Source: an uncultured Candidatus Saccharibacteria bacterium
GTDB lineage: Bacteria; Patescibacteriota; UBA1384; UBA12157; JAENIV01
Direction: 5' to 3'
DNA length: 58,129 nt
NCBI GenBank assembly: GCA_964479405.1
Contig: CAYZMA010000002.1
Span: forward strand, 1-58,129
The position numbers and the translations under genes are program-made. Within the stretch, counting starts at the first letter, position 1; each line of letters begins with the position of its first letter. The notes below the pieces were generated by a model. The model was not told the origin of the DNA, did not search any database, and saw only the letters and a program-made list of their open reading frames with translations. Below, in pieces: positions 2,456-57,965 of this stretch.

Positions 2456-2470
2456 CTCGACGGGGAATGA

Positions 2471-2620
2471 CCAATTAATCTAATTATTCTAATTTCTAAT
2501 AGTTATTGTCATTCTGAGCGAAGCGAAGAATCTCCGACAAATGTCGGATGTTGCATTCGCGACAGATCCTTCACTGCGTTCAGGATGACATTAGGTTAAT
2601 TAGAATAATTAGAAATTAAA
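2471..2620. repeat. Composite nested palindrome filling the intergenic gap: AT-rich 9-bp-unit inverted arms around a GC-richer tgtcattctgagcg-type hairpin
   Basis: A 16-bp perfect inverted repeat, tctaattattctaatt / aattagaataattaga. Inner arms ttgtcattctgagcgaagcgaagaatct / agatccttcactgcgttcaggatgaca (2506..2590). Central hairpin tccgaca-aa-tgtcgga. Confidence 0.8.
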
Positions 2621-10421: not shown

Positions 10422-10428
10422 GGTTTAG

Positions 10429-19929: not shown

Positions 19930-19937
19930 GGAGCAAA

Positions 19938-25373: not shown

Positions 25374-25421
25374 AGATTTGATTTTATGCTAATTATTTGT
25401 TTAATTCAAGGTAAGGGAAAA

Positions 25422-38764: not shown

Positions 38765-39710
38765 ACGAATTTTTGTTGGCTTCAATAGCGCTGGCGCCGC
38801 TGGCATCTGGAGTTTTACAAGAGTTCTTAGAAGGAGGGGATACCAAATTGATTTTTACGGCATGGGAGAAATTAGTTTTAATATGCCGGTAGATTTTTTG
38901 TTAAAATTTTCTGATTATCCGTTACGATCATTTATTCAAAGATTTATTTATTTTTTCAAAATATTACCAAAGTATAATGTTTGGCACTTTAATTATATGG
39001 AAGTGTTTTTCTTTTATCCTCTTAATCTTTTAATCCTTAGGATTCTGGGTAAAAAAATTGTATGTACTTTTCGTGGTTCGGAAGTGCGCTCAAAGCTTCG
39101 TATGAAAATATTTTGTTTTTTAGCAGATGAGGTTGTGCTTACTGGTCCGTTTTTAGTAAAGTCTGTTGATCGATATGACATTATTATCCCATATGCCCGT
39201 AATGTCCAAAATTTAATAACACAAACAAATAAATCAAATAATCAAAAATTGACTGTTTTACACGCGCCAAGCAACTCAAAGGTGAAAGGAACACTTTATG
39301 TTGAAAAAGTTTTTAAACATTTGAATAAATTATATCCCCAAGTAGAATTTAAAATTGTTGAAGGGTTAAATCATGACGCTTTATTGAACGAGATGATTAA
39401 AGCCGATATTGTTATTGATCAACTTTTAATTGGTTGGTATGGTGGCTTAGCAGTAGAAGCAATGGCAATGGGTAAAGTAGTGATGGCTTTTTTAGATACA
39501 GACTATTTTCAATTTGTTGATTTCGGTTCAGATTTACCTATAATAAACACAAATATTTGGACTCTTAAAAGAGATTTAGAAATGCTTATCAATCACACTG
39601 AAGATTTCAAACGATTTAGGATTGAAGGAATGAAATTTGCGCGTAAATATCATGACTCTAAAAAAATTGCCGAAAAATACTTAACCATATATCGAGGCTC
39701 TGATGAATAA
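38736..39710 (+). CDS. GT-B-like glycosyltransferase, a paralogue of the C-terminal part of 35059..36291
   Basis: HAPSNSKVKGT and GWYGGLAVEAMAMGKVVMAF. The start is uncertain (29-nt overlap with the upstream gene). Confidence 0.5.
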   Translation: MSKKDPLKSRRIFVGFNSAGAAGIWSFTRVLRRRGYQIDFYGMGEISFNMPVDFLLKFSDYPLRSFIQRFIYFFKILPKYNVWHFNYMEVFFFYPLNLLILRILGKKIVCTFRGSEVRSKLRMKIFCFLADEVVLTGPFLVKSVDRYDIIIPYARNVQNLITQTNKSNNQKLTVLHAPSNSKVKGTLYVEKVFKHLNKLYPQVEFKIVEGLNHDALLNEMIKADIVIDQLLIGWYGGLAVEAMAMGKVVMAFLDTDYFQFVDFGSDLPIINTNIWTLKRDLEMLINHTEDFKRFRIEGMKFARKYHDSKKIAEKYLTIYRGSDE

Positions 39711-43273: not shown

Positions 43274-44389
43274 ATGATAAAAAAAATTTGCATGCTCACA
43301 ACCAGCGAGATTTTTCATGACTCACGAATTCTAAATGAAGCAGAGACCTTAAATAAGAAATATCAAGTAACAATATTGGCTCGTAAATATTCTGGGCAAA
43401 AAAACCAAAATTATAAATTTAAGATTAAACTTATAGATTATTTTAAACTACCATTCTTTCAATTAAACATTTTTTCATCATTTTTTTCTTTAGCTAAAGC
43501 GGCTTTTAAAGAAAACCCCGATATTTATCATGCACATGATCTTGACGGGCTTTTATGTACTATGCCCGCAGCTTTGGTTAAATGCAAGACATTAATTTAT
43601 GATTCTCACGAGTTATGGTCTGATACATACCCTTTTGCTAATCTAAGGGGTATTCAGTGGCTTTTGCCAGTTTTGGAAAAAATATTAATGACAAAAGTCA
43701 GAAGTGGTATTACGGTTAATGACTCTCTGGCAAAAATACTTCACTTAAAATATGGCAAAGATTTTATTTCTCTTTACAATACTCCTACCTTAAAAAAGTT
43801 AACTAAAACCCAATTGAATCTTAAAAAGGAATTTCCTGATAAAAAAATTATTCTTCATCTTGGTGCGGCCGACGAAGGCCGGGGAATGGAGGAGATGATT
43901 GAAGCGGTTAAGTTTCTGCCAAAAAACAATATTATGGTTTTTATTGGTGGTGGAAAAACAGAAAACGAACTGAAAGAACTTATTAAAAAAGAAAATTTGG
44001 CAAAAAAAGTTCACTTTTCTCTAGCAGTACCGCCAGAGCAAATAATTTCAATTGTTAAACAAGCTGATCTGGCTTTGGCGTTGACTCAACCAATTTCTAA
44101 AAGTTATTACTATTCGTTGCCGAATAAAATTTTTCAATATATTGCGGCTGAGACACCGATTTTAGGCAGTAATTTTCCAGAATACAAAAAAATTATACTT
44201 CAAAATAATATTGGCGAAGTGGTAAATCCAGCTAGATCGAAATTAATTGCTCAAAAAATTATCAGTATGACTAAGCCAATTGTCCAGAAGAAATACCGTC
44301 GTAACCTTGTGGGATTGGCTAAAACAAAATATAATTGGTCCATTGAAGAAAAAAAACTTGTCAAGTTCTATCAAAATTTGGTAGATTGA
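43274..44389 (+). CDS. GT4-like glycosyltransferase, a paralogue of 24189..25373
   Basis: See 24189..25373. YHAHDLDGL, LIYDSHELW, YYYSLPNKIFQYIAAETPILGSNFP. Confidence 0.75.
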   Translation: MIKKICMLTTSEIFHDSRILNEAETLNKKYQVTILARKYSGQKNQNYKFKIKLIDYFKLPFFQLNIFSSFFSLAKAAFKENPDIYHAHDLDGLLCTMPAALVKCKTLIYDSHELWSDTYPFANLRGIQWLLPVLEKILMTKVRSGITVNDSLAKILHLKYGKDFISLYNTPTLKKLTKTQLNLKKEFPDKKIILHLGAADEGRGMEEMIEAVKFLPKNNIMVFIGGGKTENELKELIKKENLAKKVHFSLAVPPEQIISIVKQADLALALTQPISKSYYYSLPNKIFQYIAAETPILGSNFPEYKKIILQNNIGEVVNPARSKLIAQKIISMTKPIVQKKYRRNLVGLAKTKYNWSIEEKKLVKFYQNLVD

Positions 44390-44394
44390 ATCTA

Positions 44395-45486
44395 ATGAAA
44401 AAAATTATCACCATTATCGGCGCCAGGCCTCAATTTATTAAAACACCTTTAGTTTCTAAAGAAATTAGAAAATTTGCCAAAGAAATTTTGGTTCATACAG
44501 GTCAACATTATGATGCTAATATGTCGGCGGTCTTTTTTAATGAACTTAAAATTCCCAAAGCTGATTATAATTTAAATGTTGGCTCTGGAAATCAAGGACA
44601 ACAAACTGGCGAAATGTTGGAAAAAATTGAACAAGTTTTACTTAAAGAAAAACCAGATTTAGTAATTATTTACGGTGATACAAACTCAACTGTTTCTGGA
44701 GCATTGGCAGCAGTTAAATTACATATTCCAGTGGCTCATATTGAATCAGGTATGCGTTCTTATAACAGACAAATGCCGGAAGAAATAAATCGTATAATTT
44801 CAGATCATATATCCGAACTTTTGTTTTGTTCAACCATGTCTTCAGCAAAAATATTAAAAGAAGAAGGAATTGCAAAAGGGGTTTATTTTGTGGGGGATGT
44901 GATGGCAGATATACAGAAAAAAATCCGAAATCCGAAATCCGAAATCCGAAACAAATTATTTAAAACTCTAAATATCAAACCAAAAGAATATATTTTGGCG
45001 ACGGTCCATAGGCAAGAAAACACCGATATTAAAGAAAATTTAGAAAATATTTTTAAGGCGATGGGGCAGATTGGAGAGACAATAATTTTACCTTTGCATC
45101 CTAGAACTAAGAAGGCGATTAAAACTCATAAACTTCAAACATTAGTTGATAAAAACTCAAATTTGCGACTAATAGAACCAATTGGTTATCTTGAGATGCT
45201 TGCTTTAGGATCAAGTGCAAAAATGATTTTAACTGATTCTGGCGGAGTTCAAAAAGAAGCTTATTTAAATAAAGTGCCTTGCATTACTTTGCGTAAAGAA
45301 ACTGAATGGATTGAAACAATTCAATCTGGCTGGAATCAATTAGCAAATACCAATGTGAATAAAATAGTTCGTTTAGTCAAAAACTTTCCTAAACCAAAAA
45401 ACCATCCTAATTTTTTAGGTAATGGGAAGGCCTATCTAGAAATAGCTCAAAAGATTAAAGAATTTTTAATAAGAACTAAAATTTAA
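44395..45486 (+). CDS. wecB: Non-hydrolysing UDP-GlcNAc(A) 2-epimerase (WecB/WbpI/MnaA family)
   Basis: IIGARPQFIK, HTGQHYD, YGDTNST, HIESGMRSYNRQMPEEINR, VHRQENTD, TDSGGVQKEA. ATG at 44395 is preferred over the TTG at 44386. Confidence 0.9.
   Translation: MKKIITIIGARPQFIKTPLVSKEIRKFAKEILVHTGQHYDANMSAVFFNELKIPKADYNLNVGSGNQGQQTGEMLEKIEQVLLKEKPDLVIIYGDTNSTVSGALAAVKLHIPVAHIESGMRSYNRQMPEEINRIISDHISELLFCSTMSSAKILKEEGIAKGVYFVGDVMADIQKKIRNPKSEIRNKLFKTLNIKPKEYILATVHRQENTDIKENLENIFKAMGQIGETIILPLHPRTKKAIKTHKLQTLVDKNSNLRLIEPIGYLEMLALGSSAKMILTDSGGVQKEAYLNKVPCITLRKETEWIETIQSGWNQLANTNVNKIVRLVKNFPKPKNHPNFLGNGKAYLEIAQKIKEFLIRTKI
44922..44949 (+). repeat. Perfect heptanucleotide tandem repeat (aatccga) x4 inside the 2-epimerase CDS
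   Basis: Read directly. It encodes ..KKIRNPKSEIRNK.. in the inter-domain linker. The unit length is not a multiple of 3. Confidence 0.9.
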
Positions 45487-46244
45487 TATTTATAGTCACT
45501 TAGTTTAATGTAATTGTATTGACCGATTCTTACAGGTCCATTAGGGGCGATTTTTAGCATTGTTTTATCTCTTAAGTCAATAACACTAACCTTAACTTTT
45601 AGATTGCTCATATGTTCGCGGGCTTTTGAATTTTTTTCATCAGTTGCCGTTAAAAAGAATACTTGGCTGTTGGCATGTTTGCCGGCTACTTGTTCTTCAA
45701 TTGATTGGTCAAGCCAAATATTAGTGGTTGGGTCCAAAACTTGCCAGCGGTCATTAAGTTTTATCTCTATAATTCCATGACCTGGATAAATTGCTAAAGT
45801 TCTAAATTCGTATCCAGATTTATCCAGTAACATGGCAAGCAATGCGGTATAATTTCCGCAGTGCAAATAATCACCACCCCATATTAATTCTTTGATTGAT
45901 AATTCTTTAAGACTTCTTTCGTTGTAATAAGCCGACATATGAACAAAATTCATGTAGAACAGGGCCTTTAATTTTCTCTCGTCAGTTGTACCGGCCATTT
46001 TGGCGAAAGTCTTATGATATTTGACTAATCGTTTATCTAATTTTTGATCTACGATGGTTGCATTGTCTTCATTACCGTCTAGTATTTCATCTTTGTTAAA
46101 TATTTTATAGTAAGCTTTGGATGAATTAGGGTCTAGGTAAATAAATTGGCGCCAACAAAAATATCCGATTAGAGCAAGGATTAAAATTGAGATAAAAATT
46201 AGTATTGCCAGACGGATTTTTGAGGAAAATATTTTATTTAGCAT
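45483..46244 (-). CDS. Membrane-anchored transglutaminase-like (Cys-His-Asp fold) protein
   Basis: N-terminal hydrophobic helix (LAILIFISILILALIGYF). YLHCGNYTALLAMLLDKSGYEFRTLAIYPGHGIIEIKLNDRWQVLDPT fits the transglutaminase-core order C..H..D. Confidence 0.6.
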   Translation of the reverse strand: MLNKIFSSKIRLAILIFISILILALIGYFCWRQFIYLDPNSSKAYYKIFNKDEILDGNEDNATIVDQKLDKRLVKYHKTFAKMAGTTDERKLKALFYMNFVHMSAYYNERSLKELSIKELIWGGDYLHCGNYTALLAMLLDKSGYEFRTLAIYPGHGIIEIKLNDRWQVLDPTTNIWLDQSIEEQVAGKHANSQVFFLTATDEKNSKAREHMSNLKVKVSVIDLRDKTMLKIAPNGPVRIGQYNYIKLSDYKY

Positions 46245-46250
46245 TGTATT

Positions 46251-46278
46251 TTGAATATACTACTCTAAATGATATATT
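46251..46278 (+). promoter_or_regulatory. Promoter candidate TTGAAT, 16-nt spacer, TATATT, ending 6 nt before the ATG at 46285 (leaderless or near-leaderless transcript)
   Basis: TTGAAT at 46251..46256 and TATATT at 46273..46278. There is no SD-like purine run in the 6 nt before the ATG. The whole divergent intergenic region is only 40 bp. Confidence 0.4.
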
Positions 46279-46284
46279 TAAAGT

Positions 46285-48543
46285 ATGAATTTGTTTTTTC
46301 ACAAGAAACAGACATTTTATGTTTATTTTTCTTGTTTTTTAGTTCTCAATTTTATTTTACTAATAAATAACTTTTTCCCGTCAAGACCGGTAATGATATT
46401 TTCAACTTTTTTAAGTGCAATATTTATTCCGGGGTATGTTTTAAGTCGCGTTATAAAAATTCAATACGAAGGTTTTGTTGGTCAGCTAATTCTGTGGCTA
46501 ACTCTAGGCTTAAGCTTTAATCTTTTACTTTGTTTCTTGGCTGTTGTTGGTGGTTTAACAATTTCAGTTTTTTTACAATTTTACTTTGTCGCTATGGCAT
46601 TATTGTTGATTGTGGCTTTTGTTTTGGAATTGCTAAAACCTGCTGATCAAGAAATAAAAATCAGTTTAAATTACCGAGAAATTTTTAAGGCTCAGAATCT
46701 AATCTATTTTTTCTTGTTTATCTTAATAGTTTTAGTTTTGGTGACAGTTGATCAATTGGGAACAAATTTTACCGGTGATCCGTTTTATCATCTCTCTTTT
46801 ATGCGCAAGGCTATTGAAGGTCAACCAATGACGATTAATAATTTGAGCTATCTTAAGAATGATTTTCCAATTGCCTATGTAATTCCACTAAGTCATGTTT
46901 TCTTAACATTGTTTGTGAAATTGACCAACAGTAATATTTTTACTCTCTACCGTGAGCTTTCTACCGTTTTAACGCTTATTTCTTTTTTGGTCTGGTATTG
47001 GTTATTTGTTAAAGTTTTACCTAATCGTCAAGTAGCTTTTTTAGCGCTTTTTTTATTGATACTTTATTATTTTGATAAAAACGCTTATTTATATACCCGT
47101 TTAGCAATTCCGGATACCTTTGGTAATTTAATTTTGTTGCCGTTGTCATTTGGTTTGGTAATTAACTATGTTTTTGACAAATCTTCAACTTACAAACATC
47201 TGATTATTGTTTCGTTAATGATTGCTTTGATGGGTTTGTATCATTTTACTCAATATTTTTATTTTCTTTTAGCAATGGGACTGTGGGTTGTGCTATATGC
47301 AATATTTAACTATAAAAAAGAAGATTTTTGGTTGATTTTGAAAAAAATATTTCAATGTATTTTTGTCAACATGATTTTAATTGTACCAATTTTGCTTTTC
47401 TGGTTATTAAAGAACAATACTTTTAGTAAAAGTCTTCAGGTTTTTTCGGCAGTGACTAGAACTTCTAATAATGATCGGTTTGAAAAATTTTCGCCTTACA
47501 TGCAGTTGTCTTATGTCTTTTTGCCATTTATAATTCTTTTCTTCAAAAAATACCGGTCGCTTATTTTTCTTTTGAGTGTTTTTCTGGTTGGTCCTTTAAT
47601 TTACAATATTCCTGGTTTAGAAAATTTGATGCGTCATTATTTTAGTCATATTTTTGTAAATCGTCTTTATGGCAATTTAGGAGAATGGCCTTATGCTATT
47701 TGGGCTTTAGTATTGTTTTTTCTTTTTATTTTGGTTGACAGGTTAATGATAAAATTAAATGCCTTTTCAAAATATCTTAAATACTTAATTAATAGTGTTC
47801 TTGTAGTTATTTTGGGATGGATGTTTTATTTACAAAGTAAGGAAGGTAAAATCTTATCTTATTACAATCAAATTTTTCGTTCAGAAGGACTACACAATTG
47901 GCTAAGTGGCAGTTATCATTGGCTGATCCCGCTTACGATGGCAGTTGCTCTAGCGCTCTACATTGGTCAAAAATATTCGCTTAAAATAAATAATTTTTTT
48001 GAGTTTAAAAATATTCAAAATCAATCAACAGTATTAATTTTAATGTTGATTGTAGTCTTTTTTATATTGTCACCTGCTTATAATCATTTAAGTGTTTATG
48101 CTAATAAGGTGTTAGTCAATAACCACTTTTTTTCTGTTGCCACAGACCCAACATTGGACATTATTAATCCAACTCAATTTGGTGGAATGGAAACCATTGA
48201 GTTTATTAAAAACAATATTCCGTCTAAATCTGTTTTTGATACCAATTCTAGGGCAAATTATTCTTTGCCAACATTGGTTGATGTTCATATGGCTTCTTGG
48301 ACGAATAATGATGATGTTGATCCGACAAAATTATATCAAGGTTTGTATGAAAAAATTCCGCTTAACGACAAACTTAATTTACTTAAAAAAGGCGACATTG
48401 ACTATATTATTTATGTCTATAATAAAAACAAAGAGTTGGCACCATTTGAGGCCTATCCGAAATACTTTAAAAAAATATATACTAATACCAATGCAGTGAT
48501 TTTTCAAATAGATAAAATAGCAGTTAAAAATAGTTTATACTAA
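46285..48543 (+). CDS. Giant polytopic membrane protein, GT-C-like, unassigned family (tandem paralogue 1 of 3)
   Basis: 752 aa with about 15 hydrophobic segments and a ~130-aa hydrophilic C-terminal domain. Motifs IFIPGYVL, GDPFYHLSFMRKAIEG, AYVIPLSH, IPDTFGNLILLPL, FVNRLYGNL are shared with the next two genes. Confidence 0.6.
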   Translation: MNLFFHKKQTFYVYFSCFLVLNFILLINNFFPSRPVMIFSTFLSAIFIPGYVLSRVIKIQYEGFVGQLILWLTLGLSFNLLLCFLAVVGGLTISVFLQFYFVAMALLLIVAFVLELLKPADQEIKISLNYREIFKAQNLIYFFLFILIVLVLVTVDQLGTNFTGDPFYHLSFMRKAIEGQPMTINNLSYLKNDFPIAYVIPLSHVFLTLFVKLTNSNIFTLYRELSTVLTLISFLVWYWLFVKVLPNRQVAFLALFLLILYYFDKNAYLYTRLAIPDTFGNLILLPLSFGLVINYVFDKSSTYKHLIIVSLMIALMGLYHFTQYFYFLLAMGLWVVLYAIFNYKKEDFWLILKKIFQCIFVNMILIVPILLFWLLKNNTFSKSLQVFSAVTRTSNNDRFEKFSPYMQLSYVFLPFIILFFKKYRSLIFLLSVFLVGPLIYNIPGLENLMRHYFSHIFVNRLYGNLGEWPYAIWALVLFFLFILVDRLMIKLNAFSKYLKYLINSVLVVILGWMFYLQSKEGKILSYYNQIFRSEGLHNWLSGSYHWLIPLTMAVALALYIGQKYSLKINNFFEFKNIQNQSTVLILMLIVVFFILSPAYNHLSVYANKVLVNNHFFSVATDPTLDIINPTQFGGMETIEFIKNNIPSKSVFDTNSRANYSLPTLVDVHMASWTNNDDVDPTKLYQGLYEKIPLNDKLNLLKKGDIDYIIYVYNKNKELAPFEAYPKYFKKIYTNTNAVIFQIDKIAVKNSLY

Positions 48544-48547
48544 TATT

Positions 48548-50701
48548 ATGGTCAAACATCTTGTTTGTTTAGTATTTGGGTTATTAATTTTTGTTCTTGG
48601 AATAATTTTTCCCGGAATTTTTAGTAATCCGTTATCGTTCACTATATATTTTTTGTATATTATTTTTCTACCAGGTTGGCTTATAGGACAAATTTTAAAA
48701 TTACCAACCAATGAATTAATCAATAGTATTTTAATTTATTTTGTTTTAGGAATAGGTTTTTATTTGGTAATTAATTTCTTGGCTATTGTGGCTGGAATTA
48801 AAATATCTGTTCTTTTAGTAATCATCTTCACTCTTTTAGGAATATTATTTGTGATCTCTTTTGTTTTGAATGGTAGAAAATTAGAGAATATAAATTTAGA
48901 TTTTCAGAAATTGTTTAAAATTGTTTTTAGCCGTCCAAATGTGTTTTTCTTGATTCCAATAGCAATTGGTGGATTTATAATTTGGCTTTTGGCTTTACAA
49001 GGACCTAATTTAAATGGTGATCCTTATTTTCATTTAGCAATCATTCGTAAGGCATTGGAAGGGAGCTCTCTTTCCAGTCGAGCATTGGCTTTAACAGAAA
49101 CTCAACTAATTAATATTGCTTATGCTTTTCCTGCTTGGCATATTTTCTTGGTAAGTGTGGGAAAATTTTTGTCATTAGATGTTTTTGCTATTTGGACAAA
49201 CATCATCTTTGCTTTAACAATAATTTCTTTTTTTGTTTGGTATTATTTAGCAAAAATAATTTTTAAAAATGTCATTTGGGCTGTTGTAGGTCTAACTTTA
49301 ATGCTGATTTTTACTGTCTACAGTGGTCCAGGGTATTTGTTTAGTCGCTTAGGCGTGCCAGATACATTAGCTCAACTTATTCTTTTGCCTCTTGGTTGGG
49401 GGTTAGCGCTGGATTATATTTTAAATTCAAAAACAAAAATTTTAATTCCAGCATTGGTAATAGCTTTTGCTTTACTGGCTGTTCATGCACCACATTATTT
49501 TTATTTACTAATATCTATGATATTGTTTGGAATTATTTACGCCATAACTAATTTTAAAAGCGATGATTACAGATTAGTTTTACGACGGTTTGCAAATTTT
49601 GTGTTGATTAAGGTAGTAATATTGGTGATTTTAGGAATAACTATTGAGATAAAATCAGGTAGTTTAATTTTTTCTTTAAGTCAATTTATGCAAATTACCG
49701 ATGGAACATTTTTTTCAGTCACTTGGCAAAAATTTGGGTTACTTTATAAATACGGGTATTTGTTATTACCACTTTTTATTTTATTTTGGCGGTTTAAAAA
49801 TCTGCAATTTATTTTTACTCTTATGATTCTGGCACCTTTAATTTATTGGACTCCATTGAAGAATGTTTTAAATCAATTACTAAGTGGAGTTTTTATTGAC
49901 AGGTTACTAGCTAACACAGCTTTGTATTTCTTTGTCTTTGCTTTTATTTTGGAACTAGGATTTCTTTTGGTTGATAGTTGGGTGCAAAAACAATCAAAAG
50001 TAAGTCTTACACTTATAAATTTAGTTTTGGTTGTAATTTTTACTGGATTAGTAATTTTAGAAATTAGAACCCAAGTAGTTTCGGATTTTACTTATCAGCT
50101 TTTTTATGATAAAATGACCAATGCTTGGGTTAATAATTATTCATTATGCCTATTAGGTTTAGTATTGCTTCTTGTGTTGATATTGTCTTTAGCAAAAGTT
50201 TCTAAAAAAATTGATCTTGAAAAAAATTTTACTCAACCTATATCAGTTTTTATTTTGTTTTTAATAATTTCTTTTATTTTGGTTTCGCCTTCATTTGTTA
50301 ATGCTAAAAATATAACCCAAAATTCAGTAAAAAAAGGACAAGAATATTTTTTGGCAGGTATCAATAATGACAGTAACGCACTAAATTTTGTTCAATCTAG
50401 GATTCCTGTAAAATCAACTATTCTAACAGACGGAGGCACATCTAAAAGCTTGGTGGTTTTAACTAACCAATATGTGGCATACAATATTGGCTCGGCTTAT
50501 GAGAAAAAATTTCAATGGGTTTTTGATTCTACCACTTCAGATGAAGCCAAAGCAGAAATTGTGACTGATCCAAAATGGGCGATCGATTATATTTATTTGG
50601 CAAAGCCTTCTTTGGAAGATACTCACTTTAAAGCACACACTGAAATTTATCAGTTAATTTATAATAATGGCCAAACGGAGATATATAAAATAATAAAATA
50701 G
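48548..50701 (+). CDS. Giant polytopic membrane protein, GT-C-like, unassigned family (tandem paralogue 2 of 3)
   Basis: 717 aa. Motifs IIFLPGWLI, GDPYFHLAIIRKALEG, AYAFPAWH, VPDTLAQLILLPL, FIDRLLANT. Confidence 0.6.
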   Translation: MVKHLVCLVFGLLIFVLGIIFPGIFSNPLSFTIYFLYIIFLPGWLIGQILKLPTNELINSILIYFVLGIGFYLVINFLAIVAGIKISVLLVIIFTLLGILFVISFVLNGRKLENINLDFQKLFKIVFSRPNVFFLIPIAIGGFIIWLLALQGPNLNGDPYFHLAIIRKALEGSSLSSRALALTETQLINIAYAFPAWHIFLVSVGKFLSLDVFAIWTNIIFALTIISFFVWYYLAKIIFKNVIWAVVGLTLMLIFTVYSGPGYLFSRLGVPDTLAQLILLPLGWGLALDYILNSKTKILIPALVIAFALLAVHAPHYFYLLISMILFGIIYAITNFKSDDYRLVLRRFANFVLIKVVILVILGITIEIKSGSLIFSLSQFMQITDGTFFSVTWQKFGLLYKYGYLLLPLFILFWRFKNLQFIFTLMILAPLIYWTPLKNVLNQLLSGVFIDRLLANTALYFFVFAFILELGFLLVDSWVQKQSKVSLTLINLVLVVIFTGLVILEIRTQVVSDFTYQLFYDKMTNAWVNNYSLCLLGLVLLLVLILSLAKVSKKIDLEKNFTQPISVFILFLIISFILVSPSFVNAKNITQNSVKKGQEYFLAGINNDSNALNFVQSRIPVKSTILTDGGTSKSLVVLTNQYVAYNIGSAYEKKFQWVFDSTTSDEAKAEIVTDPKWAIDYIYLAKPSLEDTHFKAHTEIYQLIYNNGQTEIYKIIK

Positions 50702-50728
50702 CAAAGCTAACTTTGCGCGGAATTTTTT
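50701..50728 (+). terminator. Weak hairpin plus T-run between paralogues 2 and 3
   Basis: gcaaag-ctaa-ctttgc (50701..50716), then gcggaa and T6 (50723..50728). The stem is short and AT-rich, so it may only attenuate. Confidence 0.3.
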
Positions 50729-50740
50729 AGCAAGGAAAAT

Positions 50741-52915
50741 ATGAAGATTAGAGTCGTTTATCTATATTTGGGATATATTGTTTGGCTAGTCTCTTTAGTA
50801 TTTTTAATTAAAATTTTGCATTTAAACAATACTGTGTTAGGAATTACATTGGTTTTTTTGACTTTAATTCTTACTCCTGGCGTTTTACTTTTCCGGTTGA
50901 TTCCTTTTGGAGCTGAAAATAATGCCGCTAAAATACTGTTAATTATTGGTCTCAGTTTTGGTTATTATTTTTTGCTTAATTTTTTAGCAATTGTAACTAG
51001 CTTAAGTCTTTATTATCTGAGTTTGGTTACTTTTTTCTTAATTCTAATTTTGTTTATTATTGCTTTAATCAAAGATTGCAATAATGTATCTGAAGTAAAT
51101 ACTTCCTGGTTTAAAAAACAGTCAATAACCGATTATCTTATTTTATTAATTTTAGTTATTAGCTCAATTTTTGTTTTTCTAATGATGAGTGCCCAGTCAG
51201 AAAAATTAATTGGCGATGGTTGGTTTCATTCGGCGATTTTGCAAAAAATTATTTCAAGTGACAATTTAAATCCATATAATCTTTGGGTAACAAAAACGAC
51301 ATCTTTGAATTTAGTTTATTCCTTTCCGATTTGGCATATTTTGGTGGGAGAAATATCAAAGTTGATTAATGCCTCAATCTTTACGACTTTAAAGCAGGTC
51401 TTACTACCTTTATCTATTTTTACTTTAATTACATGGTATTGTTTAATAAGTGTTATTTTCAAAAACAAATATCTTGTAACTGTTGTGTATCTGTCTTTCT
51501 TTCTAGTTTTTCTTAAAGATAATAATTTTTATTATCTTGTGGCTGTTACTTCACCAGATTCTTTTAATCGATTATTTTTATTACCATTAATAATGGGAAT
51601 TGTTGTCAATTTAATATTTTTTAAGAAATCAAAAAATATTCCTACCATTATCCTGATTAGTTTATTGGCAATATTTTTGGGATTAGTCCACTTTATTCAA
51701 TTTATTTATTTAATAATTATTCTTGTTGTTTTTGTAATTCTTCTTTTTATTTTCTTTAGAAAAAAAGATTCTCTAGTTAAGTCGGTGTACTTGTTAGGTG
51801 GTTTGGTATTATTTGTTTTACCATACCTTTTAATTCATTATCAGTCTGTAATAAAATTTTTGAATGAAAATTCTATTTATTTTGTTAATAACAAAATTGA
51901 TTATCGTCCCTATCCAGGAATGAATATCATTTATCGTTATGCAATTTTGATTTTAGTGCCGATATTACTTTTTTTAAAGAAATATCCTCGTCTTATTCTT
52001 TTATACGCTATTGGCTGTGTCTCTTTGATTATTTATTGGCCATATTTTGGTTTAAAAGGTTCATTTTATGAATATCTTGGAAAGATTTTTGTTGATCGAT
52101 CTTTAGCGAATTTACCCCATTTTATTTTTTTCGGATTTGCTCTATTCATGGTTTTAATTGGTATTAATTATTTGACAGTTAAATTATTTAAGAAATTTAT
52201 TTGGGTTGCGAATATTTTGATAGCAATACTTGTTTTAACTTTACCGCTTTATAAGAATACTGTTATATATTTTGTTAAAAATATTCTTTATTCAGAAACT
52301 TTATTTTTTAATGGTCTGTCATTTTGGTTAGCATTATTTGTTGTAATTATTCTTACAATTACAATTTATGTTTTAACTTACAAAAAAAGTGTCACAATCC
52401 CTTCGCCATTTAATAACTTAAACTTTGTTTTATGGATGCTTTTAATGGTTATAGCTTTAACTTTGCCTTATTTTGAAAGTGCAAACAAAGTCTTGACTAA
52501 TAATCCAAATGGGAGCTTAATTACTGACAGGACATCAAAATATGCGATTGAAACAGAAAATTATGGAGGTGAAAAAACAGTTGATTTTTGGAAATCTCAG
52601 ACTAGAAAAGTATTTTTAACCGATAATGTAACAATGTCTCAGCTAATTTTGCTTTATTCCGATAATTATGTTGCCGAATACCCTTATGGTATTTCAAAAT
52701 TTAATTTTAGTCTTGATTTTTACCAACCAGATCAACCAGACGATATTAAATTTACTCTCTTAAACAATCGAGAGATAAATTTTATAGTAACAAGAGATAC
52801 ATCTGAACAATCGTTTTTTAATCGCTACCTAGATCATTTTAAAAAAGTTTATGAAATACACTATATCAATAAGAATAAAAACAAGGAACTTTATATTTAT
52901 CAATATTTAAAGTAA
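50741..52915 (+). CDS. Giant polytopic membrane protein, GT-C-like, unassigned family (tandem paralogue 3 of 3)
   Basis: 724 aa. Motifs LILTPGVLL, GDGWFHSAILQKIIS, VYSFPIWH, SPDSFNRLFLLPL, FVDRSLANL. AAGGA SD. Confidence 0.6.
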   Translation: MKIRVVYLYLGYIVWLVSLVFLIKILHLNNTVLGITLVFLTLILTPGVLLFRLIPFGAENNAAKILLIIGLSFGYYFLLNFLAIVTSLSLYYLSLVTFFLILILFIIALIKDCNNVSEVNTSWFKKQSITDYLILLILVISSIFVFLMMSAQSEKLIGDGWFHSAILQKIISSDNLNPYNLWVTKTTSLNLVYSFPIWHILVGEISKLINASIFTTLKQVLLPLSIFTLITWYCLISVIFKNKYLVTVVYLSFFLVFLKDNNFYYLVAVTSPDSFNRLFLLPLIMGIVVNLIFFKKSKNIPTIILISLLAIFLGLVHFIQFIYLIIILVVFVILLFIFFRKKDSLVKSVYLLGGLVLFVLPYLLIHYQSVIKFLNENSIYFVNNKIDYRPYPGMNIIYRYAILILVPILLFLKKYPRLILLYAIGCVSLIIYWPYFGLKGSFYEYLGKIFVDRSLANLPHFIFFGFALFMVLIGINYLTVKLFKKFIWVANILIAILVLTLPLYKNTVIYFVKNILYSETLFFNGLSFWLALFVVIILTITIYVLTYKKSVTIPSPFNNLNFVLWMLLMVIALTLPYFESANKVLTNNPNGSLITDRTSKYAIETENYGGEKTVDFWKSQTRKVFLTDNVTMSQLILLYSDNYVAEYPYGISKFNFSLDFYQPDQPDDIKFTLLNNREINFIVTRDTSEQSFFNRYLDHFKKVYEIHYINKNKNKELYIYQYLK

Positions 52916-54106
52916 ATTTTCTTCCAAAACTCTATAAAAATTGTCATCAGAGAATTGTCTGATTGCCAGTTGACGAGCATTTTGGGAGAATTTTTTTAAT
53001 TTTTGAGGGTTCTGATAAAGTTCTAAAATTGCCTTGGCAAGCATTTGACTATCACCCGGAGCCACAACAATCCCAACTTGATTTTTTTCAATCAATTCTT
53101 TAAGATTTTTACCGGCGCAGGCGACAATTGGCTTACCGCAACCAAGGTATTCCGAAGTTTTGGTCGGTAAAGCATTGTCGGAAAAGAATTTGTTTTTGGA
53201 AAGCGAAATAATGCCTAAATCGGCCGCATTAATCAGTTCAACAATTTTTTCCGTTGGCTGGCTGTTGATAAAAGACATATTTTTTAGTTTGGCATTTTCG
53301 GCGGCAGTAATAAGGTTACCTTTGTCCTCACCCTCGCCAACCATTAATATCTTTATTTTTGGGTATTTTTTTAAAATTGATGCTGCTTCAATCACAGTTT
53401 TAAGATTTTGAACTTGAGTCAGAGAGCCAACATAAATAATGATAAAATCTTGGGGAAGAAGACCAAGTTTTTGCCGATTTATTTTTATAGGTTTAAAAAT
53501 ATTGGTATTAACCGTATTAAGGAGGGCCACAACTTTATTTTGGGGTGTACCCATTTCAATAATTGTTTGGCGGATTTCTTCGGTAGCGCAAAAGATTTTA
53601 TTGGCGCGAAGATAATAGTATTTTTCTAAATTTTTAAGAATTTTTTTGATCAAACCATTACTTTTATAACCCAGTTCAAAAGCGGAATCTGGCCAAAGGT
53701 CGCGGACATCAAAAATAAATTTACCTCCGCCTATTCGCCGGGCAAAAAGACCGGCTAGTCCGGAGAAAAAATTGGGTGAAGAGACAATAACTAAGTCAAA
53801 AGTGGGCATAAAAAGAACAGCGACGCAACATGAAAAAACAAACATCAAATGATTAAAGGTTCTTTTAATAAAACCCATATTTGGGGTAGGAAAATCCCAA
53901 ACGCGAAAAATTTTAACATTATTTTCAAAAGATTTGACCCACAATTGACCACGATATTCTTTAGGTAATATACCGGTGGGATACGAGGGTAGACTAGTTA
54001 AAACCGTGACATTATGTTTTTTAGCTAAAAATTCAGCCATTCTAACCATTCGTTTAACTGGCGATTTAATTGGCTGATACCAATGGCTAATGAGAAGTAT
54101 TTTCAT
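52907..54106 (-). CDS. GT4 glycosyltransferase of the WbuB/WcaI-like type (candidate L-6-deoxy-HexNAc transferase)
   Basis: MKILLISHWYQP..LTSLPSYPTG N-terminus and LPTKTSEYLGCGKPIVACAG..VGIVVAPGD. ATGA overlap with the upstream small membrane protein gene. Confidence 0.65.
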   Translation of the reverse strand: MKILLISHWYQPIKSPVKRMVRMAEFLAKKHNVTVLTSLPSYPTGILPKEYRGQLWVKSFENNVKIFRVWDFPTPNMGFIKRTFNHLMFVFSCCVAVLFMPTFDLVIVSSPNFFSGLAGLFARRIGGGKFIFDVRDLWPDSAFELGYKSNGLIKKILKNLEKYYYLRANKIFCATEEIRQTIIEMGTPQNKVVALLNTVNTNIFKPIKINRQKLGLLPQDFIIIYVGSLTQVQNLKTVIEAASILKKYPKIKILMVGEGEDKGNLITAAENAKLKNMSFINSQPTEKIVELINAADLGIISLSKNKFFSDNALPTKTSEYLGCGKPIVACAGKNLKELIEKNQVGIVVAPGDSQMLAKAILELYQNPQKLKKFSQNARQLAIRQFSDDNFYRVLEENLL

Positions 54107-54456
54107 TTTCTTTTCTTAACATTCTTTAAGGCCAAAGCTCTTACAAGTCTGGTGATTTCTTTTTCTTGTTCATTACTTTTGACATAAAGACGATAAGTGG
54201 CGTAAAAAAGAGCAACAATACTTAAGAAAAACATGGCATCATTGCCCCTCTCCATGCCGAGCATTTTAGCTAAAAAGTTTGTTTTACCGGGGATAAAAAC
54301 TAAAAGAATCATCAATGCCCAAACAAACGACCAAAAAATTAACTCTTTGTAATTTAAATCTTTACTTCTAAATCTAATTAAAACTCGCGACCAAGCAAAA
54401 ATGGCAAATAGGGTAAAGATAATTTTTATTAGAGCTAAACCGCCAAAAATATGCAT
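54103..54456 (-). CDS. Small 3-4-TM membrane protein, DUF2304-like from memory, with a basic C-terminal helix
   Basis: 117 aa. MLGMERGNDAMFFLSIVALFYATYRLYVK..EITRLVRALAL resembles the G-RG-D...RL..R.LA pattern that I recall for DUF2304 proteins paired with GT2 genes. Confidence 0.5.
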   Translation of the reverse strand: MHIFGGLALIKIIFTLFAIFAWSRVLIRFRSKDLNYKELIFWSFVWALMILLVFIPGKTNFLAKMLGMERGNDAMFFLSIVALFYATYRLYVKSNEQEKEITRLVRALALKNVKKRK

Positions 54457-54468
54457 GAAATAAAATTT

Positions 54469-54580
54469 CCAATTATTCTAATTAATCTAATTGACCTAAT
54501 AAACTTCTAATTTCTAAAATTATTTTTGGATATTTTAACATTAGATATTAGGATTTGATTAGAATAATTAGGTTAATTGG
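54469..54580. repeat. AT-rich inverted arrays of 9-bp ctaatta-type units, the same family as the outer arms at 2471..2620
   Basis: Left arm ccaattattctaattaatctaattgacctaat. Right arm attagaataattaggttaattgg. The reverse complement of the right arm, ccaattaacctaattattctaat, shares the same units with the left arm. It lies in a 204-bp gap inside a minus-strand gene string. Confidence 0.7.
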
Positions 54581-54660
54581 GATTTGGGAATTTATTGTTT
54601 ACTTACTAAAAAATCTTCTATATTTCGGAATATTGAAATTCCGCGACGATTTTTTAAAAT

Positions 54661-55347
54661 TCACTTTGAAAAAAATCGTCTATATATTAACTTAGATATT
54701 ATTCTGAAACCATTAATGTTTTTTTGCCCTTTTCCCAAAGAGTATTTAGTATAAATGCTAGTGATGGGCACTTCAAGTAATTTTAAATTGTTTCGGTTAA
54801 TTTCATAGAAAAATTCAGAAGAAACCTCCATTTTGTTTGACTGAAGGTCAATTAGGTCAATGGCTTTGCGATTGAACGCGCGGAGACCCGATTGCGAATC
54901 AGTCGTCCACACCCAAAAGAAAAAGAAGGTAATTAAGTTTAGACCCCAAATACCAATAATTCTGTACCAAGGCATGCCGTCGGTTTTTTTTAGGCGCGAG
55001 CCAATAACAACATCGGCTTTTTTTTGAGTTAGAGGTTTTAAAACCGGCCAAATATCTTCCTGATTGTGTTGACCGTCGGCATCAAAAGTTAGAAGCAAGT
55101 CAAAATTATTTCTTCTGATGTATTCAAAACCGGTCCCTAAGGCGCCACCTAAACCGCGATTAAGATCGTGCTCAATGACAATTACTTTTAATTTTTGGGC
55201 AATTTCAACTGTTTTGTCTTTTGAGCCGTCGGAAATAACAATAATTTGCGTTTGACTAATTTTAGGAAAGCGACGGGGGATTGATTTAATAACTTTTGCT
55301 AAAGTTTTTTCTTCATTGTAAGCCGGAATAAGAATTGCCAGTTTCAT
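54661..55347 (-). CDS. Short soluble-type GT2 (DPM1/PpgS/dolichyl-phosphate-glycosyltransferase-like polyprenyl-phosphate sugar synthase candidate)
   Basis: LAILIPAYNEE, IIVISDGSKD, LTFDADGQHN. The ATG at 55347 is preferred over the upstream in-frame ATG at 55395. Confidence 0.8.
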   Translation of the reverse strand: MKLAILIPAYNEEKTLAKVIKSIPRRFPKISQTQIIVISDGSKDKTVEIAQKLKVIVIEHDLNRGLGGALGTGFEYIRRNNFDLLLTFDADGQHNQEDIWPVLKPLTQKKADVVIGSRLKKTDGMPWYRIIGIWGLNLITFFFFWVWTTDSQSGLRAFNRKAIDLIDLQSNKMEVSSEFFYEINRNNLKLLEVPITSIYTKYSLGKGQKNINGFRIISKLIYRRFFSK

Positions 55348-55413
55348 GGTGTTTTTAATATATGATATAAAAAAATAAAATGACAGTTTCGTCAAGGGTA
55401 TGGATAGTGAGAC

Positions 55414-55429
55414 TAAAATTTGCTAAAAT
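55414..55429 (+). promoter_or_regulatory. Extended -10 promoter candidate (tTGcTAAAAT) for the tRNA-Ser gene
   Basis: taaaatttgctaaaat ends 10 nt before the tRNA 5' end. It shares 15 of 16 positions with 1412..1427. Confidence 0.45.
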
Positions 55430-55439
55430 GTGTTTGTAT

Positions 55440-55526
55440 GGAAGGGTCGCATAGCGGACTAGTGCGCCTGTCTTGAAAACAGGTGATCATGCAAGTGATC
55501 CGTGAGTTCGAATCTCACCCCTTCCG
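55440..55526 (+). tRNA. tRNA-Ser: tRNA-Ser (anticodon UGA), no encoded CCA
   Basis: Acceptor ggaaggg/cccttcc. Anticodon stem cctgt/acagg with loop cTTGAaa. Long variable arm gatca..tgatc. T-arm gtgag-ttcgaat-ctcac. Discriminator g. Confidence 0.9.
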
Positions 55527-55650
55527 TATATTTTGGGTATGTTTTATAAATAGTAATTTTTAGGCTTAGCAAGGGATAATTTCATAACTTGATATTCCAA
55601 TTTGGAACATCAAGATGGAGAGGAACTAGAAAAAACCTAGGAGTTAAATT

Positions 55651-57324
55651 ATGACAAATAATCAAGATTGGGAAAATTTAAACGAACAAGAACTTATTGA
55701 AATTCTCAAAAATGGTAAAATTAATGAAAAAAATATTGATGAATTTATGAAAGTCTTGGAGAAAAAAGGAATGAACGGTTCAATTATGCGTGTTGATAAC
55801 TTAGCACCAGAAGAAGAAAAGGCATTGAAGGAATATCTTGATTATCATAAAAATATACCAAAGAATCCGCAAAGTCCAAAAGAAATTTCTCAGGCGATAA
55901 AAGTTTTATCAGATTCTGTGGCTAGTTTAGAAAGTCTTAAAAAGGCGATTATTACTTTAGCTCATACTGGTAAGCTTGATGCTTATGAAGCGCTTGAAAA
56001 TTATGCTCAAAATCCTCGTAAGGAACTTTCAATCTGGCTTCAACAGGCTCTTCAGGAATGTAAAATGTTTTTAAAAAGCGATCTTTTGGATCGACCAGTA
56101 GTTGAAAAAGGAGACATAGAATCTGTTAGTTTGGGTAATGAAGTTTTAGCCAATGATTTTTTTCAGGATTTTTTGACTTTCTTAAAATCTTTGAAAGAAC
56201 ATCCTCTAGAGCTGACGGTAAATAATAACTTACAACTCAAAGAAATTGAAAAGTTGGGTAAGATTTTCAAGACTGATATTTACCACCGTTCAGAAAAAGG
56301 CGAGGTTCTTTTTCCTATAAGAAGCGAAGAGGAGGTATTTCATCTCCAATTTATTCGAGTTTTGGGAAAAATTATGAAACTCTCTACTCAACGTAAAAAT
56401 AAGTTAAAAATTACTCGTTTTGGGCTCAAGTTTTTAGAATTTTCGCCATTTGAACAATTTGTTGATATTATACTTAATTATTTAGGGGAATACAATTGGG
56501 CTTATTTAAGGTCTTATGCTGGACACAATTCAAAGTCAATCCCCGAAGTTCTACAAAAAAATCAAGGGTTGATTTACTCAAGGTTAATGTTTGAAAAAGA
56601 CTGGTTAGATTTTAAAAATTTTGCCAAGTTTTTAAAAAAAGAACTAGCTTTAACTTGGGATTATATTGATGGTGAAATTGAGACTTTGTTAGTTAAAGAT
56701 TTAGCGCGCTTTGGGCTTATTGAATACGAAGAAAAGAAAAAATTAAAGGGTTATTTTGAAGAAGTTTCGAAATTTCGTTTGACAAAGTTGGGAAGATTAA
56801 TTATCCCGATGTATTTAGAAACCTACAATCCGCCCGTTGCACTTCCTAAGGGCAAAAATATTAATGTGGTTTTGCCGACGATTAAACTAAAATATCTTGA
56901 TAAAGGAAAGAATGTTCCTAAACGTCCAGATGCTCGCTGTCACTTTTGTGACAAAACTAATATTGTTATTGGTGCTTATTTAGATACTTATACTAATAGT
57001 CCAAAAGTTGTTTGTGAGGATTGTGCGATTGATAATTATCAAAAAGATTTTGGCTATAAAACGCGTGAAATTGCGATGGCTCGTCGCCGTCGGATGTTTG
57101 ATGTGACTTATTTATTTTTTGAGATGGTTCTAGACCAATATTTAGCTCAAAATAAAATGCCTTTTATTGAAAATATAAATGAAGTAGAATATGATCGTTT
57201 AATGAACTTGTCTCGAGAAGTATTTAACGCATCTCTTAGCCGGCAAGAGAAAATTGAGCTTGAGGAAACTTACAATCAGTCGGAAATAGAAGAAAGACTT
57301 AGAGAATTGCTTAAAAATATCTAA
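55651..57324 (+). CDS. Hypothetical protein with a C-terminal CxxC..CxxC zinc-ribbon-like motif
   Basis: 557-aa ORF with an AGGAG SD. RCHFCDK-x22-CEDCA. No recognisable enzymatic motif. Confidence 0.6.
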   Translation: MTNNQDWENLNEQELIEILKNGKINEKNIDEFMKVLEKKGMNGSIMRVDNLAPEEEKALKEYLDYHKNIPKNPQSPKEISQAIKVLSDSVASLESLKKAIITLAHTGKLDAYEALENYAQNPRKELSIWLQQALQECKMFLKSDLLDRPVVEKGDIESVSLGNEVLANDFFQDFLTFLKSLKEHPLELTVNNNLQLKEIEKLGKIFKTDIYHRSEKGEVLFPIRSEEEVFHLQFIRVLGKIMKLSTQRKNKLKITRFGLKFLEFSPFEQFVDIILNYLGEYNWAYLRSYAGHNSKSIPEVLQKNQGLIYSRLMFEKDWLDFKNFAKFLKKELALTWDYIDGEIETLLVKDLARFGLIEYEEKKKLKGYFEEVSKFRLTKLGRLIIPMYLETYNPPVALPKGKNINVVLPTIKLKYLDKGKNVPKRPDARCHFCDKTNIVIGAYLDTYTNSPKVVCEDCAIDNYQKDFGYKTREIAMARRRRMFDVTYLFFEMVLDQYLAQNKMPFIENINEVEYDRLMNLSREVFNASLSRQEKIELEETYNQSEIEERLRELLKNI

Positions 57325-57325
57325 G

Positions 57326-57829
57326 ATGAAAGATTTAATTGTTCAAGAAATAATTGAGCAAAAGATTTATTTAATTCGGGGTCAAAAAGTGATGCTGGAC
57401 CACGATTTAGCTGTGCTTTATGAAGTACCGACAAAACGATTAAATGAGCAGGTTAAAAGAAATAAGAAAAGATTTCCTAATGATTTTATGTTTTTGCTAA
57501 CTTGGGATGAAACAATAGGTTTAAGGTCGCAATTTGCGACCTTAAAGGATAAAGAACATAAAAAATATCGTCCTTATGCTTTTACAGAACCGGGGGTGGC
57601 GATGCTCTCAAGTGTTCTTAATTCTGATAGAGCAATCCAAGTCAATATTCAAATTATTAGAACATTTATCAAACTAAGAAAACTTTTGGCAACCCACCAA
57701 GATTTACTAAAGAAAATTGAAGAAATGGAAAAAAGATATGACAAACAATTTAGAATTGTTTTCCAGATAATGCGAGGACTAACTGATTCGCCCAAAGAAT
57801 CGGGCAAAAAAATTGGTTTCCAACCGTAA
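57326..57829 (+). CDS. ORF6N-domain (KilA-N-related) DNA-binding protein
   Basis: IYLIRGQKVMLDHDLAVLYEVPTKRLNEQVKRNKKRFPNDFMFLLT..RSQFATL..YRPYAFTEPGVAMLSSVLNSDRAIQVNIQIIRTF is the classic ORF6N pattern. A 1-nt gap separates it from the upstream gene. Confidence 0.85.
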   Translation: MKDLIVQEIIEQKIYLIRGQKVMLDHDLAVLYEVPTKRLNEQVKRNKKRFPNDFMFLLTWDETIGLRSQFATLKDKEHKKYRPYAFTEPGVAMLSSVLNSDRAIQVNIQIIRTFIKLRKLLATHQDLLKKIEEMEKRYDKQFRIVFQIMRGLTDSPKESGKKIGFQP

Positions 57830-57874: not shown

Positions 57875-57965
57875 GGAGAGGTCGCATAGTTGGCTTAGTG
57901 CAGCTTCCTGCTAAGAAGCTGACCTCGCAAGGGGTCCGTGGGTTCGAATCCCACCCTCTCCGCCA
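57875..57965 (+). tRNA. tRNA-Ser: tRNA-Ser (anticodon GCU), with encoded CCA
   Basis: Acceptor ggagagg/cctctcc. Anticodon stem gcttc/gaagc with loop ctGCTaa. Long variable arm. T-arm gtggg-ttcgaat-cccac. Discriminator g followed by cca. Confidence 0.9.

Follow-up and report, generated by a model that had tools for sequence, protein, structure and literature searches.

A conserved GT2–DUF2304–GT4/GT-C gene cassette, probably for glycosylation outside the membrane, in a surface-glycan locus from a groundwater metagenome

Results

Layout of the cassette

Within a 58,129-nucleotide stretch of DNA from a groundwater metagenome (contig CAYZMA010000002.1, hereafter the window), we found a gene cassette that probably serves glycosylation outside the membrane. 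On the minus strand it starts with a short family 2 glycosyltransferase (GT2) of 228 amino acids opening with ATG (54661..55347; its relatives also have 228 amino acids), followed, after a 204-bp spacer (54457..54660) holding an imperfect palindromic element, by a DUF2304 membrane protein of 117 amino acids (54103..54456) and by a WcaI/WbuB-like family 4 glycosyltransferase (GT4; 52907..54106), whose gene overlaps the DUF2304 gene by ATGA. This string converges on three plus-strand genes of large membrane proteins with a GT-C-type fold, numbered here paralogue 1 (752 amino acids; 46285..48543), paralogue 2 (717 amino acids; 48548..50701) and paralogue 3 (724 amino acids; 50741..52915), the stop codons of the GT4 and of paralogue 3 both lying within 52907..52915. 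At the far end of the triplet, a gene encoding a membrane-anchored transglutaminase-like protein of 253 amino acids (45483..46244, minus strand) diverges from paralogue 1 across 40 bp (46244 to 46285). A first-pass annotation of this DNA had described these open reading frames (ORFs), the overlap, the convergent stops and the divergent gap, all of which we recovered from the ORF listing and the sequence; its four protein identifications were likewise upheld by family searches and fold comparison. A promoter and terminator scan of 45000..55800 returned fewer matches than shuffled sequence did.

The cassette lies within a glycan locus of about 55 kb that also carries Wzm/Wzt with Wzt_C, two Wzx-like genes, many GT4 genes, FnlA/B/C-like genes, a UDP-sugar dehydrogenase, two 2-epimerases and sugar-nucleotide enzymes. 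The relatives are annotated as Patescibacteria or Candidatus Berkelbacteria, and the host locus is a Patescibacteria (Berkelbacteria-like) surface-glycan locus.

A putative lipid-sugar synthase and its presumed DUF2304 partner

The DAD and NEE motifs reported earlier for the GT2 are present in its translation, which matched Glycos_transf_2 in Pfam (1.8e-28). The best NCBIfam match was PpgS, polyprenyl-phospho-N-acetylgalactosamine (GalNAc) synthase (1.9e-42), over the full length of the protein; further matches were AglJ (second, 3.1e-27), a dolichyl-phosphate hexose transferase, PgfS and ArnC, and all of these, PpgS included, fell below the equivalog cut-offs. By sequence, the closest solved structures were dolichyl-phosphate-mannose synthase (DPMS, 5mlz), ArnC and GtrB. 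The best matches were polyprenyl- or dolichyl-phosphate sugar synthases throughout, with no processive or soluble-acceptor GT2 among them, in keeping with the annotation's view of the enzyme as one that loads a lipid with sugar. A hydrophobicity scan detected one weak internal segment and no C-terminal transmembrane pair. We class the protein with the short enzymes of the PpgS/GacI type, as a putative synthase of polyprenyl-phosphate sugar.

The 117-residue protein clearly matched Pfam DUF2304 (3.7e-24, 103 of 106 profile positions), the sole family found in the Pfam scan. Two hydrophobic segments exceeded the scan threshold, and its sequence, read together with the published topology of GacJ, suggests three helices. 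The gene stands directly downstream of the GT2 in the window and in 11 related loci. The earlier annotation had suggested a DUF2304-like protein belonging among flippase-like families; the DUF2304 part of this stood, whereas the flippase-like part did not, as GacJ and Rv3632 bind and stimulate their GT2 (bioRxiv 10.1101/180810). GacJ joins GacI in a complex, lowering the Km for the lipid and raising Vmax (bioRxiv 10.1101/180810), and Rv3632 is a DUF2304 protein that stimulates PpgS (PMC9671496). By analogy, the 117-residue protein, a homologue of GacJ/Rv3632, is presumed to be the activating partner of the GT2. Given that DUF2304 proteins are activators and not flippase-like, GacI/J/L or PpgS/Rv3632/Rv3779 is the closest model, and the Gtr and CsbB/GtcA/YfhO systems fit less well.

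The three large membrane proteins have a GT-C-type fold

The three large membrane proteins (717-752 amino acids) are mutually paralogous with 27-29% identity. All their homologues were found in Patescibacteria metagenomes, with DUF6541 or DUF6077 frequent among them. Those sharing 40-48% identity match these Pfam families (P0002, 58 bits; P0016, 40 bits), whereas the three window proteins do not reach the gathering threshold of DUF6541/DUF6077 and gave no match even at E <= 10, indicating that they are related but diverged. Sequence and profile searches found no solved structure for the three proteins, and only fold comparison succeeded. An AlphaFold2 model of paralogue 2, built from a 32-sequence alignment, had a predicted local distance difference test score (pLDDT) of 91.2 and a predicted template modelling score (pTM) of 0.92. 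When it was compared with solved structures by Foldseek, the best 25 matches were GT-C enzymes without exception (25/25), namely STT3 (top), AftA, DPY19, ArnT, AglB, PglB and AftB. AftA gave the best template modelling score (TM-score, 0.54), with ArnT and DPY19 similar. Paralogues 1 and 3 are assigned through their paralogy with paralogue 2.

Among 32 members of this GT-C family, Gly157-Asp158, His162, Lys168, Pro271-Asp272, His313 and Arg452 are invariant, and all three window paralogues keep these residues. The fifth transmembrane helix is followed by a short helix that begins with Asp158. Judged from secondary structure, this residue would be the catalytic Asp of the first external GT-C loop, placed after four extra N-terminal helices. 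Membership of the oligosaccharyltransferases (STT3/AglB/PglB) was rejected, as their WWDxG motif occurs in 0 of the 32 members.

Each of the window paralogues 1, 2 and 3 has its own best-matching counterpart across lineages, indicating that the triplication is old and that all copies have been kept. In several lineages the nearby copies are limited to paralogues 2 and 3. In two Berkelbacteria genomes paralogue 2 is represented by two ORFs (L009 7699..9956, L010 1332..3430; the letter L denotes fetched loci), which may reflect a frameshift, a pseudogene or an assembly error. In L006 (1..403) the paralogue 3 slot holds a 1014-residue protein whose C-terminus is GT-C-family-like and which matches the glucuronyl C5-epimerase C-terminal domain.

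A WcaI-like GT4 as a constant member

The GT4 matched Glycos_transf_1 in Pfam (9e-31) and the WcaI family in NCBIfam (1.3e-52, below that model's cut-off). It is placed with GT2-DUF2304 in every relative and is as constant in the cassette as those two. By sequence similarity it is a WcaI-family-like GT4 and a constant cassette member.

A GT4 that is invariably in the same operon and overlaps the DUF2304 gene would suit an archaeal-style pathway, in which an AglJ-like GT2 starts a glycan on polyprenyl monophosphate, the GT4 extends it in the cytoplasm and one or more of the GT-C enzymes, after flipping, transfer the whole short oligosaccharide to a protein (S-layer protein, pilin) or a wall acceptor, as in the haloarchaeal AglJ pathway. 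The rank of AglJ as second-best NCBIfam match of the GT2, STT3 as top Foldseek match and an SLH-domain surface protein beside the GT-C genes in L015 point the same way. We nevertheless consider this pathway unlikely. The oligosaccharyltransferase motif is missing throughout the GT-C family, and AftA, ArnT and DPY19, which stand first and close behind by TM-score, all use monosaccharide lipid-phosphate donors. Moreover, DUF2304 partners have so far come from single-sugar donor systems only, and WcaI/WbuB-type GT4s usually act on diphosphate-linked glycans.

The convergent gene order is conserved

The ORFs of 34 fetched loci were scored with the window proteins and with family profiles. In 14 of 14 distinct loci that have sufficient downstream sequence, the window included (window, L001, L003, L009, L013, L014, L015/L027, L016, L019, L022/L023, L026, L031, L032 and L033), the last GT-C gene is met convergently by the GT2-DUF2304-GT4 string, or by as much of its end as is visible. 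GT-C identity among these loci goes down to 28-33%. The convergence is kept where the GT-C proteins share only 28-35% identity with those of the window (L014, L015, L026, L031, L033) and in L032, a minimal locus where just one GT-C gene is present. Synteny among related genomes had been proposed earlier as a check on the functional grouping, and the order GT2-DUF2304-GT4 / GT-C is indeed conserved among the related loci.

Conserved order may also arise among neighbours that are not partners, if the string and the GT-C genes stay together merely as parts of a large inherited glycan locus. The GT-C donor would then come from another synthase, for example the 330-residue GT2 at 25386..26378, or the GT-C proteins would be polymerases or ligases. 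Such an explanation draws on the narrow Patescibacteria/Berkelbacteria clade to which all the related loci belong, on a scan of GTDB species representatives with the family of the 253-residue protein, which returned 3 loci only, and on the 330-residue GT2 itself, which from its matches to AglJ (2.8e-15) and PpgS (9e-14) is a second, weaker candidate lipid-phosphate-sugar synthase. However, the locus has been reshuffled elsewhere, by insertions (PHP, TrmB, Wzx, AsnB), by loss or movement of paralogue 1 and by variable presence of the transglutaminase-like gene, whereas the convergent junction of the GT4 string with the last GT-C gene is unbroken in the 14 loci, even in L032. We regard mere neighbourhood as unlikely and favour a functional partnership of the string with the GT-C enzymes.

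The transglutaminase-like protein is a recurrent accessory

The 253-residue protein had no significant match in Pfam or NCBIfam (Transglut_core, compared directly, gave only E = 0.21), and sequence and profile searches of solved structures returned nothing relevant. Its model (pLDDT 94.3) matched 3isr (a transglutaminase-like putative cysteine protease), TglA, a streptococcal TGase, PNGase, the pseudomurein endoisopeptidase PeiP, the periplasmic domain of TgpA and arylamine N-acetyltransferases in Foldseek, with TM-scores near 0.3 over ~100-260 alignment columns (~110 for the best). An exhaustive profile search with the family of this protein gave 194 cluster representatives. In an alignment of 58 diverse relatives, 24 of which match Transglut_core, the only invariant columns are Tyr107, Cys129, His156 and Asp171. 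On the strength of the model and these columns, the protein is best described as a divergent transglutaminase-like protein with a Cys129-His156-Asp171 triad on a papain-like core fold. It has one N-terminal transmembrane helix with ~3 positive charges before it and a net charge of +0.4 after it, a bias that places the catalytic domain, by prediction, outside the membrane. The fold model, the triad and the ORF listing together agree with the first-pass description of an N-terminally anchored transglutaminase-core protein divergent from the triplet. The protein has two cysteines only, Cys30 in the transmembrane helix and Cys129, and the zinc-binding CxxC pairs of PNGase are missing; membership of the PNGases was rejected.

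The gene was present in ~10 of 16 distinct loci with a usable upstream flank, usually within 5 kb of the GT-C genes despite rearrangements (~10 distinct loci, 43-75% identity). It is usually convergent with a UDP-N-acetylglucosamine (UDP-GlcNAc) 2-epimerase gene, a pairing seen in L001, L003, L012, L013, L029 and L010; in the window this gene (44386..45486, plus strand) matches Epimerase_2 in Pfam (4.7e-98). In the complete Berkelbacteria chromosome OY969116.1 (L009) the transglutaminase-like gene stands between GT-C genes, and in L029 (852..2402) two tandem copies of it separate the 2-epimerase from the GT-C genes. The gene is missing in L014, L015/L027, L019/L020, L023, L024 and L031, where the cassette is intact, and in L005 it lies beside an enolase and a phosphatase, away from glycan genes. 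These absences and the L005 placement, together with its presence in ~10/16 loci, make the gene a recurrent accessory and not a core part of the cassette; the co-placement described by the first-pass annotation stands as a recurrent one.

A strict presence/absence link between this gene and GT-C paralogue 1 was also considered and was unsupported by a hand tally of the loci (both, ~7; the transglutaminase-like gene only, ~3-4; paralogue 1 only, ~2-3; neither, ~4). Two loci that lack it have another gene in its place, reading divergently from the first GT-C gene; in L015 (8568..9731) this encodes a surface protein with an SLH domain, in L014 (9302..9925) an unannotated 207-residue protein. The SLH domain gives a hint that this glycan could be a wall polymer to which surface proteins are anchored.

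For this thiol enzyme, both a housekeeping role in the wall and a dedicated partnership are tenable. Several observations would suit an enzyme of general wall or envelope upkeep, such as a peptidoglycan endopeptidase, with no specific link to GT-C: the gene is transcribed on its own, against the direction of both neighbours, is absent beside an intact cassette in the loci named above, sits apart from glycan genes in L005 and has a distant relative in L011 with no GT-C neighbour. Its fold relatives include the wall endoisopeptidase PeiP, and TgpA. Its recurrence close to the GT-C genes through rearrangements, its position between them in L009 and the tandem copies adjoining them in L029 argue the other way, and we put the housekeeping role at slightly under an even chance. 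It is unlikely that the enzyme is a dedicated fourth component of these ultra-small bacteria, one that would work outside the membrane to couple the product of the GT-C enzymes to a peptide acceptor (wall stem peptide, S-layer protein), or to trim or re-anchor it there.

Palindromic elements and other genes of the window

The spacer between the GT2 and the DUF2304 gene had been described as a repeat-filled gap. The 204-bp gap itself is there, and its content proved to be an imperfect palindrome of ~120 nt (54460..54590; fold z-score -6.1). A second intergenic palindrome lies at 2468..2616 (fold z-score -11.3), and the two have arms of ~24 nt in common (TCYAATTATTCTAATTAAYCTAAT; 4 matches against 0 expected) and different centres, the arms of the spacer copy being shared with 2470..2613. 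They look like a small repeat family of the miniature inverted-repeat transposable element (MITE) or repetitive extragenic palindromic (REP) kind. In related loci the GT2-DUF2304 spacer measures 3-75 bp, as taken from gene calls or clear ORF ends (14 bp in L001, ~3 bp in L009); thus a copy of the palindrome parts the two genes in the window, and in relatives they are nearly contiguous.

The annotation had further counted two to three lipid-sugar synthases for four GT-C-like genes. The supposed GT2 remnant at 5224..5670 had no family match and no similarity to the GT2, and only three GT-C genes were verified, so that this count is unsupported. The only candidate for a fourth, the ORF at 16988..19045, encodes a 685-residue polytopic membrane protein with a Pro/Thr-rich linker (PTSTPTPTPIPTPALTPALTLTP...). 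Profile-profile comparison with the GT-C family gave it 0.3% probability, and Pfam and NCBIfam returned nothing. These comparisons do not bear it out as a further member of the triplet's family, although a GT-C-like enzyme of another kind could still be encoded here.

Export genes of the glycan locus lie at 6642..8102, 9579..11664 and 36288..37763. They encode a Wzm/Wzt ABC exporter, in which a Wzt_C glycan-binding domain is present, as well as two flippases of the Wzx-like kind. The locus may therefore have two routes of export side by side, or one flippase may be spare and available to the lipid-phosphate-sugar. At 18979..22087 we found an RmlD-like reductase, a Polysacc_synt_2 (FnlA/CapE-like) dehydratase and a second UDP-GlcNAc 2-epimerase family gene, a trio that by sequence resembles the UDP-L-FucNAc pathway and would suit a WbuB/WcaI-type GT4. 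Two large fused glycosyltransferases also occur in the window. One is a 692-residue GT2-GT4 fusion (22084..24162); the other, a 747-residue protein at 39703..41946, has a C-terminal GT4 (residues 448-746) and relatives with two GT4 modules, and is conserved beside the cassette in relatives. A tRNA-Ser(tga) on the plus strand (55439..55527) marks the end of the glycan locus. There, a 557-residue protein that has no family and an ORF6N-domain protein (a phage-regulator-like DNA-binding domain) are flanked by tRNA-Ser tga and gct (patch coordinates 55439..55527, 57326..57829 and 57875..57965), the two tRNAs being all that Rfam returned; this may be a small mobile or integration-prone patch.

Discussion

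Together, the synthase-like GT2, the DUF2304 protein, the GT-C fold with its invariant residues, the synteny and the glycan-locus context lead us to consider it likely that the cassette is a system of the GacI/GacJ/GacL or PpgS/Rv3632/Rv3779 type for glycosylation outside the membrane. Several observations weigh against this. No flippase gene lies inside the cassette, no Pfam or NCBIfam model matched the three large proteins, and the GT2 scored 145 bits against the PpgS equivalog cut-off of 370 bits, so that its sugar may differ. The loci are all of one narrow clade, and their order may partly reflect shared descent; the transglutaminase-like gene is missing from about a third of them and lies away from glycan genes in L005. 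The gene order, the family and fold assignments, the conserved residues and the conserved synteny are matters of observation, and the functions assigned to the cassette derive from homology, fold and gene order.

From these we infer a scheme that covers the donor, the acceptor and flipping, how the paralogues share the work, and what the GT4 and the thiol enzyme do. In it, the GT2 in complex with the DUF2304 protein would act at the cytoplasmic face and load polyprenyl monophosphate with a single sugar, probably an N-acetylhexosamine, taken from a nucleotide sugar. The lipid-phosphate-sugar would then be flipped across the membrane, possibly by a product of the two Wzx-like genes elsewhere in the locus. 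Outside, the three GT-C paralogues, each keeping Asp158, Asp272, His313 and Arg452, would take it as donor and add residues to the surface glycopolymer of the ~55-kb locus, each paralogue presumably serving another acceptor position or linkage. The co-transcribed WcaI-like GT4 would act in the same pathway, most likely building the acceptor site on the lipid-linked glycan. In lineages with the anchored thiol enzyme, this protein would be an accessory outside the membrane that works at the same layer of the envelope, probably by hydrolysing or transferring an amide bond in wall peptide or in a link between glycan and peptide. Among the locus's annotated ORFs we saw no gene for an LCP-type ligase.

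The envelopes of Patescibacteria (candidate phyla radiation) are almost unstudied because the organisms are uncultured, and the cassette offers a concrete, testable envelope pathway for them, with a GT-C family whose candidate catalytic residues are defined. It would extend the DUF2304-assisted lipid-sugar scheme well beyond Firmicutes and Actinobacteria and brings in two recurrent partners foreign to the known schemes, the WcaI-like GT4 and the transglutaminase-fold enzyme. The advance is incremental unless the accessory enzyme is mechanistically coupled; if that enzyme were a true fourth component acting with three ancient, non-redundant GT-C paralogues, the cassette would represent a new envelope-assembly route of Patescibacteria. 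A literature search on DUF6541/DUF6077, on TglA and on Patescibacteria with GT-C found nothing.

Among known systems, the group A carbohydrate side-chain pathway (GacI/J/K/L) is instructive. In Streptococcus pyogenes the GT2 GacI makes N-acetylglucosamine (GlcNAc)-phosphate-undecaprenol, the Wzx-like GacK is the proposed flippase of this product, and the GT-C enzyme GacL adds GlcNAc to a polyrhamnose whose export is through an ABC transporter (bioRxiv 10.1101/180810). The window shares with it a short GT2, a DUF2304 gene directly downstream and a GT-C fold in the presumed transferase. In the streptococcal case the acceptor polymer is a product of the same locus and leaves through an ABC transporter, and the window likewise has Wzm/Wzt. 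It differs in that its GT-C proteins belong to another, DUF6541/DUF6077-related family with two or three conserved paralogues, that the cassette has no Wzx gene, that a WcaI-like GT4 is constant and a transglutaminase-fold neighbour frequent, and that the host is a Patescibacterium.

In mycobacteria and corynebacteria, PpgS and Rv3632 make polyprenyl-phosphate-GalNAc, with which the GT-C enzyme Rv3779 decorates arabinogalactan (PMC9671496, PMC3485146); the layout of the PpgS (Rv3631)/Rv3632/Rv3779 set given in the first-pass annotation agrees with these papers. PpgS is the best NCBIfam match over the full length of the window GT2, a DUF2304 partner and a GT-C fold are common to both, and the Corynebacterium counterpart (Cgp_0394/0393/0658) also has one extra cytoplasmic glycosyltransferase (Cgp_0396). 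However, the window GT2 is far below the equivalog cut-off and may use a different sugar, and the mycobacterial GT-C gene is far from ppgS, whereas in the window it is adjacent and convergent. Unlike GtrA/GtrB/GtrC and CsbB/GtcA/YfhO, the window has a DUF2304 protein in place of one of the GtrA/GtcA family, and its 228-residue GT2 lacks the C-terminal transmembrane pair of GtrB-type enzymes. With the mycobacterial Aft/Emb arabinosyltransferases the cassette shares the best TM-score (AftA) and the presence of several GT-C paralogues for what would be one donor synthase; it differs in that similarity at the sequence level was not found and no decaprenyl-phosphate-arabinose pathway genes were seen.

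The 253-residue protein shares the core fold and the Cys-His-Asp triad with the Transglut_core superfamily (TgpA, PeiP/PeiW, cysteine proteases, PNGase), and for its catalytic domain, as for that of TgpA, a location outside the membrane is predicted. A single N-terminal anchor stands in place of the polytopic domain of TgpA, and the zinc-binding cysteines of PNGase are missing. The core logic of the cassette is already established, and what is new is the host phylum, an uncharacterised GT-C family kept in conserved multiple copies, an obligatory GT4 and an accessory transglutaminase-fold enzyme.

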